Part shown: in pieces, positions 1-38,703 of the stretch
How the letters are laid out: each line of letters opens with the position of its first letter
How positions within the stretch are numbered: position 1 is the first letter of the stretch
Source: a virus
Taxonomy: Duplodnaviria > Heunggongvirae > Uroviricota > Caudoviricetes
Virus record (IMG/VR): IMGVR_UViG_2724679538_000007
Coordinates: 1-38,703 of that record
Direction: 5' to 3' (one strand)
DNA length: 38,703 nt
Translations under genes and position numbers: made by a program
Notes under the pieces: model-generated
What the model was told of the DNA's origin: nothing
Seen by the model: only the letters and a program-made list of their open reading frames with translations
Database searches by the model: none

Positions 1-1071
1 TTATTTGATTTCAATTTTGTCCCACTCCCTGCCTCTGTCATCACGATACTGTGATGCCATGGTGTCCGACTTATGCCCGAGAAGATGTTGAGCAAATTTA
101 TCGCTTATCTGCTTCTCATAGAGTCTTGCAGACAAACTGCGCAACTCGTGAAAGGTAGGCGGATCCCCTTCGAAGGAAAGACCTGATGCTTTTCGTGCGC
201 GCATAAAATACCTTGATACTGTGCCGGATGAAAGCGGTTCACGACGAGTAGATGCAATTATGGTTTCTCCGCCAAGAATCTCTTTGCATTTATCAAGTGT
301 TTCCTTCATTGATATCCCGAGGGCATCAACATGCAATGCTGTTGGGATGGCAATTTTTACGCCTGTTTTGCTTTGCTCGACATAAAGATATCCATCTACG
401 ATATCAGACCACTTCATTTCGCATAAATCACCAACTCGCTGCCCGGTAACAACAGCCAGTTCCATTGCAAGTCTGAGCCAACATGGTGATGATTCTGCTG
501 CTTGATAAATTTTCAGGTATTCGTCAGCCGTAAGTCTTGATCTCCTTACCTCTGATTTTGCTGCGCGAGTGGCAGCGACCGGGTTTGTTGTTATATGGCC
601 TTCAGCTATTGCCTCTCGGAATGCATCGCTCAGTGTTGATCTGATTAACTTGGCTGACGCCGCCTTGCCCTCGTCTATGTATCCATTGAGCATTGCCGCA
701 ATTTCTTTTGTGGTGATGTTTTCAAGTGGAGCATCAGGCAGACCCCTCCTTATTGCTTTAATTTTGCTCATGTAATTTATGAGTGTCTTCTGCTTGATTC
801 CTCTGCTGGCGAGGATTTTTTCGTAGCGATCAAGCCATGAATGTAACGTAACAGAATTATCACTGTTGATTCTTGCTGTCAGAGGCTTGTGTTTGTGTCC
901 TGAAAATAACTCAATGTTGGCCTGTATAGCTTCAGTGATTGCTATCCTCCTGTCTCGGCCTAATCCAAACTCTTTACCCGTCCTTGGGTCCCTGTAGCAG
1001 TAATATCCATTGTTTCTTATATAAAGGTTAGGGGGTAAATCCCGGCGCTCATGACTTCGCCTTCTTCCCAT
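1..1071 (-). CDS. int: Tyrosine integrase, lambda Int type (356 aa)
   Basis: Translation matches phage lambda Int over its full length as I recall it (MGRRRSHERRDLPPNLYIRNNGYYCYRDPRTGKEFGLG ... HELRSLSARLYEKQ ... GHKSDTMASQYRDD). Confidence 0.97.
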   Translation of the reverse strand: MGRRRSHERRDLPPNLYIRNNGYYCYRDPRTGKEFGLGRDRRIAITEAIQANIELFSGHKHKPLTARINSDNSVTLHSWLDRYEKILASRGIKQKTLINYMSKIKAIRRGLPDAPLENITTKEIAAMLNGYIDEGKAASAKLIRSTLSDAFREAIAEGHITTNPVAATRAAKSEVRRSRLTADEYLKIYQAAESSPCWLRLAMELAVVTGQRVGDLCEMKWSDIVDGYLYVEQSKTGVKIAIPTALHVDALGISMKETLDKCKEILGGETIIASTRREPLSSGTVSRYFMRARKASGLSFEGDPPTFHELRSLSARLYEKQISDKFAQHLLGHKSDTMASQYRDDRGREWDKIEIK

Positions 1072-12195: not shown

Positions 12196-12362
12196 TTGAC
12201 CCAAATCGAAGTTACGAACAAGAAAGCGTCGAGCGGGCTTTAACGTGCGCTAACTGCGGTCAGAAGCTGCATGTGCTGGAAGTTCACGTGTGTGAGCACT
12301 GCTGCGCAGAGCTGATGAGCGATCCGAATAGCTCAATGTACGAGGAAGAAGACGATGAGTGA
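12192..12362 (+). CDS. Nin-region small Cys-rich protein (lambda NinE/NinF-type, about 56 aa; track ORF starts further upstream at 12150)
   Basis: [47 protein letters not shown] resembles a lambda nin-region protein; GTG overlapping the previous stop with an AGGA RBS is the most parsimonious start. Confidence 0.6.
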
Positions 12363-13077
12363 GTTAATAAATGGCAATGCCATCAAAATGACAAGCATTG
12401 AAATCGCTGAGTTGGTTGGTAAGCGTCATGACAATGTGAAACGTACCATCGAAACGCTGGCTAAAAATGGTGTTATCCGGCTTCCTCAAATTGAGGTTTC
12501 CGAAAGAATCAATAACTTAGGGTTCAATGTTCAGTACGAGCATTACGTCTTCGAAGGCGAACAAGGTAAGCGAGACAGTATTGTCGTTGTTGCCCAGTTG
12601 TCGCCAGAGTTCACCGCTCGCCTTGTTGACCGTTGGCGAGAGCTTGAAGAATCTGCGGTTAATATCCCAAAAACACTACCGGAAGCGTTGCGCCTTGCTG
12701 CTGATCTTGCTGAGCAGAAAATTCAACTGGAAAACCAGCTCGCAATTGCCGCACCTAAAGTTGAGTTTGCCGATCGCGTTGGCGAGGCCAGCGGAATTTT
12801 GATTGGAAACTTTGCAAAGGTTGTCGGTATTGGTCCGAACAAACTGTTTGCGTGGATGCGTGATCACAAAATCCTTATTGCTTCAGGTTCCCGGCGAAAT
12901 GTGCCAATGCAGGAATATATGGATCGCGGCTATTTCACCGTAAAAGAAACAGCGGTCAACACAAATCACGGAATACAGATATCGTTCACCACAAAAATCA
13001 CCGGGCGTGGTCAACAGTGGCTGACCAGAAAGCTGCTCGATAACGGAATGCTGAAAGTAACAGGGGAGGCTGCTTAA
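12355..13077 (+). CDS. Rha-family regulator / antirepressor (N-terminal Rha-like domain, C-terminal KilA-C/Ant-like domain, 240 aa)
   Basis: N-terminus (MTSIEIAELVGKRHDNVKRTIETL) looks like a Rha-type phage regulator; C-terminal half resembles antirepressor KilAC domains; family assignment from memory. Confidence 0.65.
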   Translation: MSELINGNAIKMTSIEIAELVGKRHDNVKRTIETLAKNGVIRLPQIEVSERINNLGFNVQYEHYVFEGEQGKRDSIVVVAQLSPEFTARLVDRWRELEESAVNIPKTLPEALRLAADLAEQKIQLENQLAIAAPKVEFADRVGEASGILIGNFAKVVGIGPNKLFAWMRDHKILIASGSRRNVPMQEYMDRGYFTVKETAVNTNHGIQISFTTKITGRGQQWLTRKLLDNGMLKVTGEAA

Positions 13078-13726: not shown

Positions 13727-13911
13727 ACGCCACAATTCAAACGATACCAGAGCTTCTTATCCAGACACGAGGCAATCAGACCGAAGTGGCAAGGATGCTT
13801 TCCTGCGCAAGAGGAACAGTGCTCAAGTACAACCGAGACAGCAAAGGCGAGCGTCACGTAATAGTTAACGGCGTCCTGATGGTCAAACAGGGCAAAAGGG
13901 GAAGGCCATGA
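13723..13911 (+). CDS. ninH: NinH-like small DNA-binding protein (62 aa)
   Basis: GNQTEVARMLSCARGTVLKYNRDSKGERHVIVNGVLMV parallels lambda NinH (GNQTEVARRLKCSRGTVRKY...). Confidence 0.7.
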   Translation: MNATIQTIPELLIQTRGNQTEVARMLSCARGTVLKYNRDSKGERHVIVNGVLMVKQGKRGRP

Positions 13912-14531
13912 GACTCGAAAGCGTAGCTAAATTTCATTCGCCAAAAAGCCCGATGATGAGCGACTCACCACGGGCCACGGCTTCTGACTCTCTTTCCGGT
14001 ACTGATGTGATGGCTGCTATGGGGATGGCGCAATCACAAGCCGGATTCGGAATGGCTGCATTCTGTGGTAAGCACGAACTCAGCCAGAATGACAAACAAA
14101 AGGCTATCAACTATCTGATGCAATTTGCACACAAGGTATCGGGGAAATACCGTGGCGTTGCAAAGCTTGAAGGAAATACTAAGGCAAAGGTACTGCAAGT
14201 GCTCGCAACATTCGCTTATGCGGATTATTGCCGTAGTGCCGCGACGCCGGGCGCAAGATGCAGAGATTGCCACGGTACAGGCCGTGCGGTTGATATAGCC
14301 AAAACAGAGCAGTGGGGGAGAGTTGTTGAGAAAGAGTGCGGAAGATGCAAAGGTGTCGGCTATTCAAGAATGCCAGCAAGCGCCGCATATCGCGCTGTAA
14401 CGATGCTAATCCCAAACCTTACTCAACCCACCTGGTCACGCACTGTTAAGCCGCTGTATGACGCTCTGGTGGTGCAATGCCACAAAGAAGAGTCAATCGC
14501 AGACAACATTTTGAATGCGGTCACACGTTAG
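13908..14531 (+). CDS. Q: Late-gene antiterminator Q, lambda type (207 aa)
   Basis: MRLESVAKFHSPKSPMMSDSPRATASDSLSGTDVMAAMGMAQSQAGFGMAAFCGKHELSQNDKQKAINYLMQF... matches lambda Q essentially throughout as I recall it. Confidence 0.95.
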   Translation: MRLESVAKFHSPKSPMMSDSPRATASDSLSGTDVMAAMGMAQSQAGFGMAAFCGKHELSQNDKQKAINYLMQFAHKVSGKYRGVAKLEGNTKAKVLQVLATFAYADYCRSAATPGARCRDCHGTGRAVDIAKTEQWGRVVEKECGRCKGVGYSRMPASAAYRAVTMLIPNLTQPTWSRTVKPLYDALVVQCHKEESIADNILNAVTR

Positions 14532-14574
14532 CAGCATGATTGCCACGGATGGCAACATATTAACGGCATGATAT

Positions 14575-14610
14575 TGACTTATTGAATAAAATTGGGTAAA
14601 TTTGACTCAA
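14575..14610 (+). promoter_or_regulatory. Late promoter PR' with overlapping qut site
   Basis: TTGACTtattgaataaaattgggTAAATTtgactc is the lambda PR' sequence (-35 TTGACT, -10 TAAATT) as I recall it, directly downstream of Q. Confidence 0.75.
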
Positions 14611-14637
14611 CGATGGATAAATGCACTCGTTAAATAA

Positions 14638-14673
14638 AGCCCTGAGTTAATAGCTCGGGGCTTTTTGCGTTTT
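14638..14673 (+). terminator. Short hairpin plus T-tract about 30-65 nt downstream of the PR' start (possible early terminator of a short leader RNA)
   Basis: AGCCCTGAG-ttaatag-CTCGGGGCT followed by TTTTTGCGTTTT. Confidence 0.4.
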
Positions 14674-14809
14674 AAGCACGGCCTTTCTGAAAGCACATCA
14701 AACCAAATACCAGACAGACAAAAATAATCACCTTATCCGCTGTGGCTACGGTGCGGTGTGCTTTGCATAAAAGAAAACCAGCTCAATGGCTGGCTTCGTG
14801 AAAGCGGGT

Positions 14810-14845
14810 GGCAAGAGGTTGCGCTAACAACCTCCTGCCGTTTTG
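14810..14845 (+). terminator. tR'-like terminator of the 6S-type late leader transcript
   Basis: GGCAAGAGGTTG-cgctaa-CAACCTCCTGCC followed by GTTTT; near-identical to the lambda tR' hairpin as I recall it. Confidence 0.6.
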
Positions 14846-14966
14846 CCCGTGCATATCGGTCACGAACAAATCTGATTACTAAACACAGTAGCCTGGATTT
14901 GTTCTATCAGTAATCGACCTTATTCCTAATTAAATAGAGCAAATCCCCTCAATGAAGGGGTAGAGC

Positions 14967-15170
14967 ATGTACCGTATGGACAAAATCAGAGAATGGTTCA
15001 GTTACAGCTTCGGAGGACTGACTGCGATGGGTGGCATTCTCTCCCTGAATGACTGGGCTGTCATCATTGGTATTCTTTGTACTGTCGGCACATTTGGCAT
15101 CAACTGGTACTACAAGCGCAAAGAGCGCGAGGACAGATTGAATGGCAATGTCACCGGCACTACGAAATAG
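14967..15170 (+). CDS. Holin, small two-TMD class (pinholin-like, 67 aa) with dual-start motif
   Basis: MYRMDK... has Met1 and Met4 separated by a basic residue (holin/antiholin dual start); Gly/Ala-rich TMD1, second TMD, charged C-terminus KRKEREDR; RBS overlaps a hairpin (cccctcaatgaagggg); first gene after tR'. Confidence 0.75.
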
Positions 15171-15645
15171 CGTAATAGCGGCGATAAGTGGCGGGGCTAT
15201 TGCTATAGCATCTGTGTTAATCACTGGACCAAGTGGTAACGATGGTCTGGAAGGTGTGAGACATAATCCTTACAAAGACATAGTTGGTGTATGGACTGTA
15301 TGTTACGGGCATACAGGAAAAGACATCATTCCCGGTAAAACGTATACCGAAGCAGAATGCAAAGCCCTCCTGAATAAAGACCTTGCCACGGTAGCCAGAC
15401 AAATTAACCCGTACATCAAAGTCGATATACCGGAAACAACGCGCGGCGCTCTTTACTCGTTCGTCTACAACGTGGGTGCTGGCAATTTCAGAACATCGAC
15501 GCTTCTTCGCAAAATAAACCAGGGCGATATCAAAGGCGCATGTGACCAGCTACGTCGTTGGACATATGCTGGCGGTAAGCAATGGAAAGGGCTGATGACT
15601 CGCCGTGAGATTGAGCGTGAAGTCTGTTTGTGGGGGCAACAATGA
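15142..15645 (+). CDS. SAR endolysin (T4-lysozyme-like muramidase with N-terminal signal-anchor-release domain, 167 aa)
   Basis: N-terminal Gly/Ala-rich weakly hydrophobic segment [20 protein letters not shown] followed by a lysozyme catalytic region ([22 protein letters not shown]) as in phage 21/P1 SAR endolysins. Confidence 0.9.
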
Positions 15646-16079
15646 ACAGAGTAACCGCGATTATCTCCGCTCTGGTTATCTGCATCATCGTCTGCCTGTC
15701 ATGGGCTGTTAATCATTACCGTGATAACGCCATTACCTACAAAGAGCAGCGTGATAAAGCCACATCCATCATCGCTGATATGCATAAGCGTCAACGTGAT
15801 GTAGCAGAACTTGATGCCAGATATACAAAGGAGCTTGCTGATGCTAACGCGACTATCGAAAGTCTCCGTGCTGATGTTTCTGCTGGTCGTAAGCGCCTGC
15901 AAGTCGCCGCCACCTGTGCAAAGTCAACGACCGGAGCCAGCAGCATGGGCGATGGAGAAGGCCCAAGACTTACAGCAGATGCTGAACTCAATTATTACCG
16001 TCTCCGAAGTGGAATCGACAGGATAACCGCGCAGGTTAACTACCTGCAGGAATACATCAGGACGCAATGCCTGAAATGA
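15642..16079 (+). CDS. Rz: i-spanin Rz (145 aa)
   Basis: [34 protein letters not shown] matches the lambda Rz N-terminus; coiled-coil remainder. Confidence 0.9.
15841..16026 (+). CDS. Rz1: o-spanin Rz1 (lipoprotein, about 61 aa) embedded in the +1 frame of Rz
   Basis: [20 protein letters not shown] lipobox followed by a proline-rich segment; AAGGAG RBS 7 nt upstream; embedded architecture as in lambda. Confidence 0.75.
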
Positions 16080-16115
16080 TCGGGCGATGAAAACCAAAAA
16101 AAACAGGAGCAATAC

Positions 16116-16391
16116 ATGACTAAGCTTTATCACCGCATCTCAACTTTTCTCTCTGGTTGCTGGGCGTTTATCACGTCTATTTCGTTCGCCATCTTTAGTT
16201 TCGGTAGCACAGCGTGCTCGCTTAGTCGGGGTCTGTGGCGTGCTATTTCAGCACTAGCGCCGAAATTTTTACCTGAAAAGGCTGTTTGGCGAATTGTAGA
16301 GCGAATGTGTAGTGAGAGCGTTCGCGAGAAGATTAACGTATTTGGACGTCATCCTCGAAATACAGGCGCATTGTGCAGTCCGTTACTGTAG
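16116..16391 (+). CDS. Hypothetical protein (91 aa) with one hydrophobic segment, in the lysis-terminase gap
   Basis: AGGAG RBS; region where lambdoid phages carry morons; no family recognised. Confidence 0.45.
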   Translation: MTKLYHRISTFLSGCWAFITSISFAIFSFGSTACSLSRGLWRAISALAPKFLPEKAVWRIVERMCSESVREKINVFGRHPRNTGALCSPLL

Positions 16392-16399
16392 TCATTACA

Positions 16400-16421
16400 A
16401 AGCCCATCTACGGGTGGGCTT
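16400..16421 (+). repeat. Stem-loop element 1 (AAGCCCA-tctacggg-TGGGCTT, followed by GATAATG)
   Basis: Perfect 7-bp stem immediately after the stop of the 16116..16391 ORF; paralogous to the element at 16697..16722. Confidence 0.45.
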
Positions 16422-16696
16422 GATAATGAAACCAGAATTTATTCTGGGAAACCAGTTACGGCAGTACAGCGAAACAACCCAAGCCAGTAAGTGGGGAAAT
16501 AACACTGGCAGCCACTGAAAGATGAACCTCCTGCCTTATGGCAAAAAAGATTCTTTGTGGTGGCGGACTGATGGAAAGACATCCTAATTTCAGCCAAACA
16601 TTGAAGGAGTTGTTATGTCAGCAGAAGGTTTCAATAACCCATCAAAATTCCGGGATGAGTGGGATAGCAGCGTAAAGAGTAAGTGATGCCATCACA

Positions 16697-16722
16697 AAAG
16701 CCATTCCCTACAGAGTGGCTTT
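16697..16722 (+). repeat. Stem-loop element 2 (AAAGCCA-ttccctacagag-TGGCTTT, followed by GATAATG)
   Basis: Same stem sequence class, related loop core (CTACAG vs CTACGG) and identical 3' GATAATG as element 1. Confidence 0.45.
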
Positions 16723-16791
16723 GATAATGGCTTATACCCTACACGGGATAACTTAACTGATATCCCTTTTAACGGATAAACGGAGCCAACA

Positions 16792-17034
16792 ATGGCAGAG
16801 ATTATTCCCATGACTGAAGAACAGAAATTCCAGCTAGAGATTTACAAACTGGTCATGAACCAGAACGCAGCCGCAGAGGAAGCATTTCAGTTCATTGGCA
16901 CTGACGAGCTGAAGCTTGAGCTATTCAAAATTCACTTCCAGTCAGGCGGCGCTAATTCGGATATCACGACCCGAACTATCGAAGCGGTGCGTAAATCGAA
17001 GGAAGCGTTAGACCTGTTCACCACCGGAGCATGA
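16792..17034 (+). CDS. Hypothetical protein (80 aa) upstream of the terminase genes
   Basis: ORF with a plausible RBS, co-oriented and tightly packed with terS. Confidence 0.5.
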   Translation: MAEIIPMTEEQKFQLEIYKLVMNQNAAAEEAFQFIGTDELKLELFKIHFQSGGANSDITTRTIEAVRKSKEALDLFTTGA

Positions 17035-35050: not shown

Positions 35051-36499
35051 CTATCGACATTTGTTGAAGTCAAATATCATTGTGTCATTATGAATAAGTG
35101 TGGTGTAGATACTATTACTTCTGTATGGTTTTTTGCACGATGATGCCAATGCAGATGGTAAGTTTATCTTAGAATCATAATCTACTTTTATTCCCATGCT
35201 GTTAAAAATAAATGCCCCAAACATCCAGTCTGATCTGATATATGATGGAGTAATCATGCCAATGATTCCGATTTTTTCATTAGCGTTTTGTACTGGTTGA
35301 GGAAATGAAGTTAACCCATTAAATCTTATTTTAGTTATATTTTGGCTTGATGTTATGTCCTTAGCCATAGAATAAAATAAAAATTCCTCTTTGCTCTTCT
35401 GTGCTTGTAAGGAATTCCCATACATGTAACTAACAATAAAGCACGAGAAAATTAAAGGGATAGGTGTGAAAAACGTCCATCTATTGGCGCTTGAAGATAT
35501 AATATAAACTGAAAAAAACATGAGACCAGAAAATCCTACTAATACCCTGGGATATACAACAGGTTCATCTAGAATAAAAAGAACGCCAATAACAGATAAT
35601 AATACGCCAAATATGCATATTAATGTAGCTATTGTCGTGTTAATTGTTTTTCTTTGAAATGCATTTGTGAATGACATTGCTATTGCTATTGATAATGTTA
35701 TAGCAAATATACCCCCCAGAAATCCCGAAAGAGCCTTTAATATCATACTTGTGTAAATTTTGTAATTTTCTGATACATTAAATGCAAGACCTTTTACATT
35801 TAATGCTAATTGAGCATGGTTTGTGCTATATGCGCCAGAAACATAAATGCTAGCAATTAGTAGTTTATAAATAATAAGTGCGGCAGTTAATGCCAGTATA
35901 TATACTGAAATATTCTTAAGAAGTGTTGTTATATTATCTGTTGATTTTAAAATAATACAATTCAAACAAGTGAGAGCAATAAATATGTTTACTGATGATT
36001 GATACAGGCTTAAAGTAAAAACCAACAGAATGATCGATGTCGCGAAATTTATAAAACTTTTGTTTTTTAAAAGAAGTGCGGCGGACACAACAGATAATGA
36101 CACAGAGAGTGACATTGTAAATACGTCAAATTTGTAAGACAAATTTTGAAGATAAAAAGGTGATACAATCAAAGATAGTGAAATTAATACTACCCTAAAT
36201 TTTCCTTCGAGTTTGGTTATGAAACAATAATAATAACAAGAGGTTATCATTGTTAACATTGATAGCAAAAGAGGCATTGGTGATATGTTGATAACCTTAC
36301 CACCAAATGACATACCTTTAATTATCCATTCTGCAAGCGGTCTACCATTGTCTGCCCATCTTGCATATCCAGCAATATTTCTTGATATGTCGTCAATGTA
36401 GAAAACATTGCCAATAATCAATGGTAATGAGTATAGAATAGCAAGTGTAATGGCATAGGTATATCCATTACGTTTTAAATACATTATAAATGAGTTCAT
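35051..36499 (-). CDS. Serotype-specific O-antigen glucosyltransferase, GtrC-type polytopic membrane protein (482 aa)
   Basis: Third gene of a gtrA-gtrB-X operon; many predicted TM helices; strongly AT-rich relative to the rest of the prophage; GtrC-type proteins are typically this divergent. Confidence 0.7.
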
Positions 36500-37416
36500 T
36501 GTGTTTTACCTTTTATTATATAACGAGGTCTCATCTTTGTTTCTGTGTAAATTCTTCCAATGTATTCACCTAGCACACCAATACCTATCAATTGGACGCC
36601 GCCAAGGAACAGAATAGACACGAGCAATGAAGGATAACCACGAACAGGGTTTCCAAACACCAGTGTGTCAAGAATCATCAACGCACCGTAAATAAATGCC
36701 ATACTGGCAACAAAAAGCCCGATATAAGTCCACATGCGTAGTGGGAATGTTGAGAAACTTGTTATTCCCTCAAGGGCTAAATTCCACAACTTCCATCCGT
36801 TAAATTTCGTGCTCCCTGCTACACGTTCGGCGCGAACATATTCTACAACATCAGTCTTTCCGCCAACCCAACTCAGTATACCCTTCATGAATAGGTTGCG
36901 TTCTTGCATGAGCTTAATATTTTCTACAACTTCACGGCTCATTAACCGGAAATCACCAACATTTTCCTCAATCTTTGGATTACTTATTTTGTTGTGTAGC
37001 TTATAGAACCACTCAGCAGTTTTGCGCTTCAGACGACCATCAGTAGATCGATCTGATCGTTTGGCAAGAACCATATCAGCGCCTGCCTGCCACTTTTCTA
37101 TAAGATGAGGAATAACCTCAATCGGGTCTTGCAGGTCAACATCAATTGGAATCACGGCATCGCCAGTTGCATGGTCTAACCCTGCAAACAATGCTGGTTC
37201 TTTACCAAAGTTGCGTGTAAATGACAGCGGAACAACTAGCGGATCAGAAACAGCCAGAGCGTTAATGATTGACTCCGTAGCGTCTTTGCTTCCGTCATTT
37301 ATGAAAACAATTTCTACTTCATATGACTTCAACTCTTCGAATTCACGTACCGTTTTATAGAAAATTGGTATCGCTTCTTCTTCATTGAAGACAGGAACGA
37401 CCAGAGATATCTTCAT
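36496..37416 (-). CDS. gtrB: Bactoprenol glucosyltransferase GtrB (GT2 family, 306 aa)
   Basis: [19 protein letters not shown] ... INDGSKD ... two C-terminal TM helices; typical GtrB organisation. Confidence 0.92.
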
Positions 37417-37775
37417 TTCGCATCCCTAAAGACAATGAACTTTGAATAGACGAAACCGCACACCAGGCTGATGGCGGAGAAAGTGATAAGGGTGACCATC
37501 GGGGGAAGTGCGCATCTATCAGCAGCCCACCCGACGACAACACTCAAGGTTCCCATGAATCCCACGTATAACAAGTAACGCATCGTTGTAGTCGATGCTT
37601 TGAATGTGAATCTTGCATTCGCGAAGAAGCTAAAGCTCACAGCTACTATGAAACCTGCGAAGTTTGCCATAGCTTGATTTGTATGCGCTGCATAGATACA
37701 TACACCAAAAACCACCCAGTGTATAAGTGTGTTCAGCACACCAATTGAGGTGTACTTTGCAAATAGCTTTAACAT
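37413..37775 (-). CDS. gtrA: GtrA-type flippase (small four-TM protein, 120 aa)
   Basis: Size, hydrophobicity and position as the first gene of the gtr operon, overlapping the gtrB start. Confidence 0.88.
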
Positions 37776-38226: not shown

Positions 38227-38703
38227 TTAACTAAACATCGCAGTAATCGAGGCGCTTGCCAGAGAGTGGAAATGGACGTTAAACCCGACCATCGCGCCAC
38301 TGGCACCTTCATCGACATCAATACGTTCTACATCCAGCGCGTGAACGGTAAAAATGTAGCGATGAGTTTCGCCCTTCGGCGGCGCTGCGCCATCGTACCC
38401 AGTTTTACCAAAGTCAGTTCGCGTCTGCAAAACGCCGTCTGGCATTGCTACCAGACCAGAGCCAAACCCTTGCGGTAATACGCGGGTATCAGCGGGTAAG
38501 TTAACAACTACCCAGTGCCACCAGCCAGAGCCAGTTGGCGCATCCGGGTCGTAGCAGGTGACGACAAAACTTTTGGTTCCCGCAGGAACATCATCCCATG
38601 CCAGATGCGGCGAAATATTATCGCCATCGTAACCCATGCCGTTAAAGACATGGCGATGCGGCAGCTTATCGCCATCGCGCAGATCATTACTAATGAGTTT
38701 CAT
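38227..38703 (-). CDS. ybhB: Host PEBP-family protein YbhB (158 aa), adjacent to lambda attB
   Basis: MKLISNDLRDGDKLPHRHVFNGMGYDGDNISPHLAWDDVPAGTKSFVVTCYDPDAP matches E. coli YbhB as I recall it; its start codon is at the window edge. Confidence 0.9.
   Translation of the reverse strand: MKLISNDLRDGDKLPHRHVFNGMGYDGDNISPHLAWDDVPAGTKSFVVTCYDPDAPTGSGWWHWVVVNLPADTRVLPQGFGSGLVAMPDGVLQTRTDFGKTGYDGAAPPKGETHRYIFTVHALDVERIDVDEGASGAMVGFNVHFHSLASASITAMFS

Follow-up and report, generated by a model that had tools for sequence, protein, structure and literature searches.

Homology and gene pairing point to a probable pinholin/SAR-endolysin lysis route in a P22-like Escherichia coli prophage

The lysis genes of the prophage analysed here raise the question of how they would act together. 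Does the holin form small pinholes that release a membrane-held SAR endolysin, or large holes as in other lysis systems, and from which phage lineages are the parts of the cassette drawn? The homologies and gene pairing described below make it likely, in our judgement, that the late cassette of this P22-like E. coli prophage works by a pinholin, a SAR endolysin and two-component spanins.

The cassette and its prophage context

The whole stretch of DNA analysed, referred to as the window, comprises 38,703 nucleotides. It is a P22-like (Lederbergvirus) prophage integrated in E. coli. Long stretches show ~96% identity to the Escherichia phages HZ41, APC_JM3.2 and IME10, and identity to P22 is ~83%. 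The prophage context includes two features outside the lysis region:

1-1071, minus strand: lambda-type integrase
35051-37775, minus strand: gtrA/B/C

At the right end of the window lies a PEBP-family gene that resembles host DNA. Scanned in full against Rfam with gathering thresholds, the window gave zero matches, and a tRNA scan found no tRNA in it; the leaders of BTP1, SPN9CC and phage 21 carry tRNA-Asn and tRNA-Thr.

Four plus-strand genes make up the lysis cassette, all within 14967-16079 according to the open reading frame listing and a direct reading of 14700-16800:

14967-15170, plus strand: holin, 67 aa, beginning ATG-TAC-CGT-ATG (M-Y-R-M); PF16080 4.4e-21, phrog_20 holin
15142-15645, plus strand: endolysin, 167 aa, GH24 lysozyme of the R21/RrrD type; PF00959 3.3e-48
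15642-16079, plus strand: Rz (i-spanin), 145 aa; PF03245 3.2e-36, phrog_13
15841-16026, plus strand: Rz1 (o-spanin), 61 aa, in the +1 frame inside Rz; PF06085 4.2e-20, phrog_3198

The original prediction had placed four genes in this interval, and all are present with exact coordinates. PHROGs agrees with Pfam (holin, endolysin and two Rz-like spanins), and these profile matches identify 14967-16079 as a lysis cassette far beyond chance. NCBIfam had no model matching the holin or Rz1, and the endolysin matched below threshold only. The genes are tightly packed: the 3' end of the holin overlaps the endolysin by 29 nt, and the endolysin stop overlaps the Rz start in ATGA fashion. An antisense reading frame (14949-15224, 91 aa, minus strand) was rejected as a gene: nothing supports it, and both genes on the opposite strand are strongly conserved.

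Holin, SAR-type endolysin and their pairing

The holin is a well-known allele, 100% identical to the protein named gp13, S or "class II holin" in PS119, ST104, SE1, SPN9CC, Emek, Oslo and BTP1 and 98.5% identical to PS34 gp13. It belongs to the HP1 holin family PF16080 (Phage_holin_2_3), which it matches over residues 5-53 with 75.1 bits (cut-off 28.8); 45 of 45 database homologues carry the same domain, under the source name 'HP1 family phage holin'. Against the phage 21 S family PF04971 (Phage_holin_2_1), the score of 19.5 bits (E 1e-3) fell below the gathering score of 26. A profile of 15 diverse homologues was also compared by hhalign and aligned end to end with the phage 21 pinholin S21 (probability 92%, E 6.7e-7, 34% identity), including a shared MDKI after the second Met. 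The same profile aligned more weakly with HP1 Hol (probability 71%). By this profile comparison, the holin is a remote homologue of S21. A PDB sequence search with the holin returned chance matches only (E > 0.5).

The 67-aa protein had been predicted to carry two TMDs, and two hydrophobic segments were indeed found, assigned by a crude hydropathy calculation (KD) and not by a dedicated topology predictor. Residues 10-26, the candidate TMD1, are weakly hydrophobic (KD mean 0.85), with G, A, S or T at 9 of 17 positions. The second segment, around residues 30-49, is more strongly hydrophobic (KD about 1.9) and is followed by a strongly basic C-terminal tail (KRKEREDR..., net positive). This profile is comparable to those of S21 and HP1 Hol and fits a class II holin of small size whose two TMDs include a SAR-like TMD1.

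The resemblance to phage 21 extends across its S21-R21-Rz-Rz1 cassette in holin size class, the two TMDs, an M-x-x-M start followed by DKI, and the basic C-terminal tail, whereas the holin studied here is only ~34-37% identical to S21 and falls in another Pfam family (PF16080 versus PF04971). HP1 Hol and Lys share with the window the Pfam holin family and the layout of a small two-TMD holin overlapping a downstream GH24 endolysin with an N-terminal SAR-like segment; they differ in that HP1 Hol is longer (78 aa, with a longer C-terminal tail) and HP1 is a P2-like myovirus. The model pinholin is S21, and a summary of the pinholin-SAR paradigm is available (PMC6139136). HP1 Hol has been described as a pinholin with a SAR endolysin that killed cells without lysis or beta-galactosidase leakage (PMC7312051).

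The endolysin had been predicted to bear a Gly/Ala-rich N-terminal SAR domain as in phage 21, in place of the lambda R transglycosylase, and its sequence agrees with this. It begins with a Gly/Ala-rich hydrophobic segment (19 residues; hydropathy 2.43) and shares 91% identity with R21, the SAR endolysin of phage 21. In a phmmer search of the PDB it matched E. coli RrrD (4ZPU) and R21 (3HDE, full length; 3HDF, active form) at ~1e-102, in alignments beginning at residue 3. R21 (3HDE) shares every residue of the 23-residue block G17-V39, which takes in the catalytic Glu and the greater part of the SAR helix. Residues E37, D46 and T52 match the R21 catalytic triad in the GH24 spacing E-x8-D-x5-T. 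The soluble P22 gp19 is a distant relative at 32% identity, and lambda R is unrelated. Closer relatives are the Emek counterpart (96% identical) and the endolysin of SPN9CC (95% identical), in which the SAR segment is unchanged. According to a summary of Lim et al. 2014 (PMC8532960), the SPN9CC enzyme needs its N-terminal SAR helix for activity. On the strength of R21 and SPN9CC, the helix would stay uncleaved and be released on depolarisation.

Translation of the endolysin may start at either Met1 (15142), with GAGGA 8 nt before it, or Met3 (15148), which corresponds to R21 Met1 and is where R21 begins to align. In several database records (e.g., phiKp_30 and ST104) the SAR domain of this endolysin has been truncated by annotation, and Rz1 has been omitted in others.

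A holin family that makes pinholes should pair with exported (SAR) endolysins, and we examined gene neighbourhoods on this logic. In all 72 complete IMG/VR loci with the holin, the same SAR endolysin of the R21 type adjoins it, always overlapping by 29 nt, while the Rz allele varied among P22, ST104 and lambda/21 types. Six divergent family members were also inspected, a small sample: Yersinia vB_YenM_06.16-1, Morganella IME1369_01, Escherichia C130_2, mEp515, Kosakonia Kc259 and APSE-7. In five of the six, as in HP1, the lysozyme next to the holin has a hydrophobic N-terminal segment rich in G and A (KD 1.8-2.5). The exception is APSE-7, whose lysozyme is soluble and resembles P22 gp19; it also has an extra lambda-like class I holin gene between holin and lysozyme. 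The pairing pattern is the one that the pinholin model predicts, and it is correlative.

Pairing alone is no proof of pinholes, because SAR endolysins also work with large-hole holins, as P1 Lyz does with LydA. The holin might thus be a canonical large-hole class II holin that times lysis by large holes, with SAR-endolysin release as a by-product of depolarisation. Such a holin would fit the fact that SAR endolysins do not require a pinholin, as well as the sub-threshold match to the S21 Pfam model. We nevertheless consider it unlikely: S21 and HP1 Hol, both experimentally studied relatives, act as pinholins; the holin has two TMDs only, one of them SAR-like; and a SAR-type endolysin adjoins the sampled family members, the lone genome with a soluble lysozyme being the one that adds a class I holin. 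SAR-endolysin release through pinholes, triggered by the holin, is favoured because profile homology to S21, membership of the HP1 pinholin family and strict pairing with a SAR endolysin all point to it, and we infer from this homology and pairing that it is the mechanism with the best support.

Dual start, late leader and hairpin

A basic residue confined to the longer of two products is a hallmark of the lambda S107 and S21-71 antiholins. The M-Y-R-M dual start claimed for the holin was found at 14967, and M-x-R-M is conserved across the family. The second ATG lies at 14976 and would give a 64-aa product from Met4, compared with 67 aa from Met1; the two in-frame starts are separated by a basic residue, Arg3, present in the long form only. 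Among 15 diverse homologues (60-99% identity), conservation is 90% or more at M1, R3 and M4, and residue 2 varies (Y, Q, H or T). More distant relatives begin with M-K-M (Yersinia phage) or M-R-M (Morganella phage), and APSE-7 lacks a dual start. In phage 21 the extra basic residue of the antiholin is Lys2, versus Arg3 in the window. By homology, the dual start probably yields a pinholin/antiholin pair, in which the 67-aa long form would act as antiholin.

The holin is preceded by late-control elements in lambdoid order:

13908-14531, upstream of the cassette: lambda-type Q gene, 97% nucleotide identity to lambda Q; Pfam Antiterm 1e-57
14574..14602, plus strand: PR'-like late promoter, TTGACT-17-TAAATT, found by promoter scan downstream of Q
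14636..14673, plus strand: tR'-like intrinsic terminator, which would end a short late leader transcript; 13-bp stem, then a T-rich tail
14794..14962, plus strand: lambdoid late leader, 96% identical to lambda 45015-45181 (blastn)
14945..14960, plus strand: sdi-like hairpin CCCCU-CAAUGA-AGGGG, present in the MFE fold

The annotation of Emek, a syntenic phage, has a qut site where the window has the PR'-like promoter, and a terminator where it has the tR'-like element. Polymerase modified by Q would be expected to read through the tR'-like terminator into the lysis genes. The lambda-type leader stops 5 nt before the holin ATG, as seen by blastn and in an alignment with Emek, phiKp_30, ST104, BTP1 and lambda.

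A hairpin over the holin ribosome-binding site, analogous to the lambda sdi structure, had been predicted from the sequence. Its presence stands: 14945-14949 pairs with 14956-14960 in a 5-bp stem around the loop CAAUGA, and its 3' arm forms the AAGGGG Shine-Dalgarno-like purine-rich run 6 nt before Met1 of the holin. Since the 96% identity of the late leader to lambda extends to within 5 nt of the ATG, the hairpin occupies a position homologous to that of the hairpin preceding lambda S, a relation of leader homology and not of mere analogy. Its folding energy is not significantly lower than that of shuffled sequence (z = -0.64, with 47 of 200 shuffles folding as well), and no covariation was found in the hairpin across 80 related loci, where the stem is invariant and the loop alone varies. 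Control of start choice by the hairpin is plausible by analogy only, because its energy is like that of shuffled sequence and it shows no covariation.

These observations bear on a second alternative, in which the protein is a pinholin that behaves as HP1 Hol does. TMD2 and the C-terminus would be externalised (N-in, C-out), a single start would be used so that Met1 and Met4 give no functional holin/antiholin pair, and the hairpin would persist as a passive remnant of the shared lambdoid leader. Pfam places the holin in the HP1 family and not in the P21 family, and the hairpin is without statistical or covariation support. Moreover, the study of HP1 Hol proposes a C-out active topology and reports a holin without a dual start (PMC7312051), so the S21 model may not transfer in detail to the present protein. 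Against this reading, the strongly basic C-terminal tail favours the cytoplasm; the conservation of M1, R3 and M4 beside a variable residue 2, together with the M-K-M and M-R-M relatives, is as expected for a selected dual start; and the hhalign alignment places the holin N-terminus, second Met included, on that of S21. We regard an HP1-like mode as improbable, somewhat more so than large holes.

On the gene identities, homologies and pairing observed at this locus, the following S21-like course of pinholin and SAR-endolysin lysis is the most probable. Lambda-type Q would let RNA polymerase starting at PR' pass tR' into the cassette. Holin mRNA would then be translated from two starts, Met4 giving a 64-aa effector and Met1 a 67-aa form with the additional basic Arg3, at a ratio that the leader hairpin may set by partly occluding the ribosome-binding site of Met1. 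Both forms would insert with two TMDs and keep the highly basic C-terminal tail in the cytoplasm. Meanwhile Sec would export the endolysin, whose N-terminal SAR helix, rich in Gly and Ala, would hold it inactive on the inner membrane. Triggering would come at a programmed time, when holin TMD1, being weakly hydrophobic, would exit the bilayer and TMD2 would oligomerise to pinholes, predicted to be small, through which the proton-motive force collapses. Depolarisation would free the SAR helix, the lysozyme would refold to its active form and degrade the murein, and the Rz-Rz1 complex would finally disrupt the outer membrane. Exit of TMD1 in S21, Lys2 of the S21 antiholin, the lambda sdi mutants and refolding of R21 are known background to this scheme.

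A further idea, which we offer as tentative, is that the lambdoid leader with its sdi hairpin and Shine-Dalgarno run is a portable translational-control module. It would have been joined, within 5 nt of the start, to unrelated dual-start holins (the class I holin S in lambda, a class II holin of the HP1 family in the window), so that one RNA element would set the holin:antiholin ratio for both. Similarly, the invariant C-terminal tail of the holin (13 residues) may double as ribosome-binding site and start of the endolysin. If so, pinholin and SAR endolysin would be a single translationally coupled recombination unit.

Spanins, mosaic joints and spread of the cassette

The last two genes have the architecture of embedded two-component spanins. 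Rz has an N-terminal TMD (KD 2.88), and the Rz1 lipoprotein gene lies wholly inside Rz in the +1 frame, with GGAG 7 nt upstream of its ATG and a V-S-A-C lipobox in which Cys20 is the predicted lipidated residue. The description of these spanins as nearly lambda-like did not hold. Amino acid identity of the whole Rz is 60% to lambda, 60% to phage 21 and 90% to P22 gp15, and Rz is also 94% identical to Emek Rz; for Rz1 the values are 40%, 38% and 95% to lambda, phage 21 and P22, respectively. Close similarity to lambda Rz/Rz1, as expected of lambda-family spanins, is thus absent, and likeness to lambda and phage 21 is confined to the embedded architecture, the lipobox and Rz residues 1-34. Kongari et al. 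2018 place the o-spanins of PS34, Emek and P22 in the HK97 family, apart from the Lambda family. On these identities the spanins are of the P22/HK97 type and not the lambda type.

Within Rz the identities change abruptly. Residues 1-34, which contain the TMD, are 97% identical to lambda, 100% to phage 21 and 79% to P22, whereas residues 35-145 are 49%, 48% and 94% identical, respectively. Judged by these values, Rz is a chimera of a phage 21/lambda-type N-terminus (residues 1-34) and a P22 gp15-type periplasmic domain. A nucleotide identity profile in 40-nt bins agrees: sequence of the phage 21 type (88-100%) runs from 15182 to about 15741, and that of the P22 type (92-100%) spans about 15702 to 16079. 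The joint in Rz lies at about 15662-15741, inside a block common to lambda, phage 21 and P22 that consists of the TMD plus 15 residues.

Comparison with the related systems confirms the mosaicism that had been claimed relative to lambda. Lambda and the window share Q, late leader and sdi-region hairpin at 96-97% nucleotide identity, and a dual-start holin and embedded +1 spanins are common to both. They part at the holin and endolysin: lambda S, a class I holin with three TMDs, is unrelated, and lambda R is a soluble transglycosylase without homology to the endolysin of the window, whereas the window combines a lambda-type leader with a class II holin of the HP1/phage 21 superfamily and an R21-type endolysin. 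Phage 21 differs in its leader, which is phage 21-type and not lambda-type, and in its spanins, since the Rz periplasmic domain and Rz1 of the window are P22-type (48% and 38% identical to phage 21). The cassette is thus a clean, textbook case of lambdoid mosaicism, with one joint 5 nt short of the holin ATG, another within the conserved block of the Rz TMD and possibly a third in the holin 3' tail.

The combination is not an unusual hybrid, as had been implied, but a standard and long-deposited P22-like allele. PS34 (AJ011580), vB_SemP_Emek and Klebsiella phiKp_30 have the same four genes in the same order, named 13/19/15 or hol/lys/Rz, with the lambda-type Q and leader; nucleotide identity is 94.6-96.6% over 98% of 14900-16100, and holin identity is 98.5-100%. 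Differences are small. In Emek and BTP1, endolysin and Rz are separated by an additional ~96-bp segment (orf30) that is absent from the window, and the gene 3' of Rz is KilA-N or Rha in phages of the PS34/Emek/phiKp_30 type versus an uncharacterised 91-aa reading frame in the window.

More widely, 11 phage records cover at least 80% of the 1.2-kb region, and in 10 of them, including PS34, Emek, BTP1 and phiKp_30, the match extends over at least 94% of the region with 92-97% identity. Among 5,426 complete E. coli genomes, 44 contain a match spanning at least 80% of the region; the RefSeq gene names there are "HP1 family phage holin", "lysozyme RrrD" and "lysis protein / i-spanin Rz". By these matches, the cassette is an already known, ordinary P22-like lysis module, nearly unchanged in many Salmonella and E. 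coli phages. Its discovery value is accordingly little; its use is in annotation and as an example of mosaic evolution. For annotation of the prophage, the pinholin/SAR-endolysin route is better supported than the large-hole route of lambda or P22. If the holin is a pinholin, the S21 paradigm would extend to the much more widespread HP1-family allele.

A mapped and a possible further mosaic joint within the lysis cassette

Within Rz, a recombination joint from phage 21-type to P22-type sequence was located at 15662-15741 of the window. The phage 21-type side of this joint comprises the endolysin and Rz codons 1-34, while the P22-type side consists of gene 15/Rz1-type sequence. Lambda, phage 21 and P22 share 95-100% identity across the block holding the joint. 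At other loci where the holin and endolysin are unchanged, the Rz allele is of ST104 type or lambda/21 type.

Comparison of the window holin with database holins delimited a shared C-terminal tail:

15105-15170, + strand: shared holin tail, holin codons ~46-67

This tail, 17 residues followed by (TGTTK), is identical in the window holin and some database holins, including P0042 and P0045, whose N-terminal and TMD sequences are quite unlike those of the window holin despite the identical tail. Moreover, the endolysin RBS (GAGGA) and start both lie inside the coding stretch of the tail. Together, these sequence comparisons suggest another mosaic joint within the 3' end of the holin gene, with the tail moving together with the SAR endolysin.

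Flanks of Rz and prophage context

Emek and BTP1 contain a ~96-bp insertion between endolysin and Rz, whereas the window and phiKp_30 do not:

Emek locus L001, 3243-3338: insertion of ~96 bp, orf30 in the annotation (31-aa hypothetical protein)
BTP1 locus L005, ~2250-2345: equivalent insertion

The slot 3' of Rz is likewise variable. In the window it is filled by a 91-aa ORF, whereas it holds KilA-N in Emek and ST104, Rha in phiKp_30 and BTP1, and ORF201 in P22. No match to the 91-aa ORF was found in Pfam or NCBIfam, its sole match being phrog_34701, a PHROG of unknown function.

16116-16391: 91-aa ORF, hydrophobic in its N-terminal half and preceded by a good RBS (AGGAG)
16392-16429 and 16688-16731: two imperfect palindromes related to each other, with 15-nt and 19-nt arms

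The palindromes have the motif (G)GGCTT(T)GATAATG in common, enclose a ~260-bp segment with tiny ORFs only, and may represent terminator-like or module-boundary elements.

Further features lie elsewhere in the window, with the two edges and the gtr operon giving the prophage context:

1-1071, - strand: lambda-type integrase with an Arm-DNA-binding domain, at the left edge
12355-13077: Rha/ANT (KilAC) antirepressor-like gene, located 5' of Q within the nin region
35051-37775, - strand: gtrA/gtrB/gtrC-like operon for O-antigen glucosylation, following the tailspike
38227-38703, - strand: PEBP-family gene (158 aa), at the right edge

The PEBP-family gene is probably a host ybhB-like gene. This arrangement places the right end of the prophage at about 37.8-38.2 kb.

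Related lysis genes in public records

The endolysin is annotated from a start downstream of the true start in phiKp_30 (rrrD, L002 2815-3246), and the same endolysin in ST104 (gene 19, L004 1776-2246) likewise has its annotated start 3' of the true one. Through these late starts, the SAR domain is partly or wholly lost from both records. Several public records also lack an Rz1 annotation.

APSE-7 (L013 1310-2241) encodes, in this order, a class II holin of the HP1 family, a class I holin resembling that of lambda and a soluble P22 gp19-like lysozyme. This two-holin layout is consistent with the class II protein being unable, on its own, to release a soluble endolysin.
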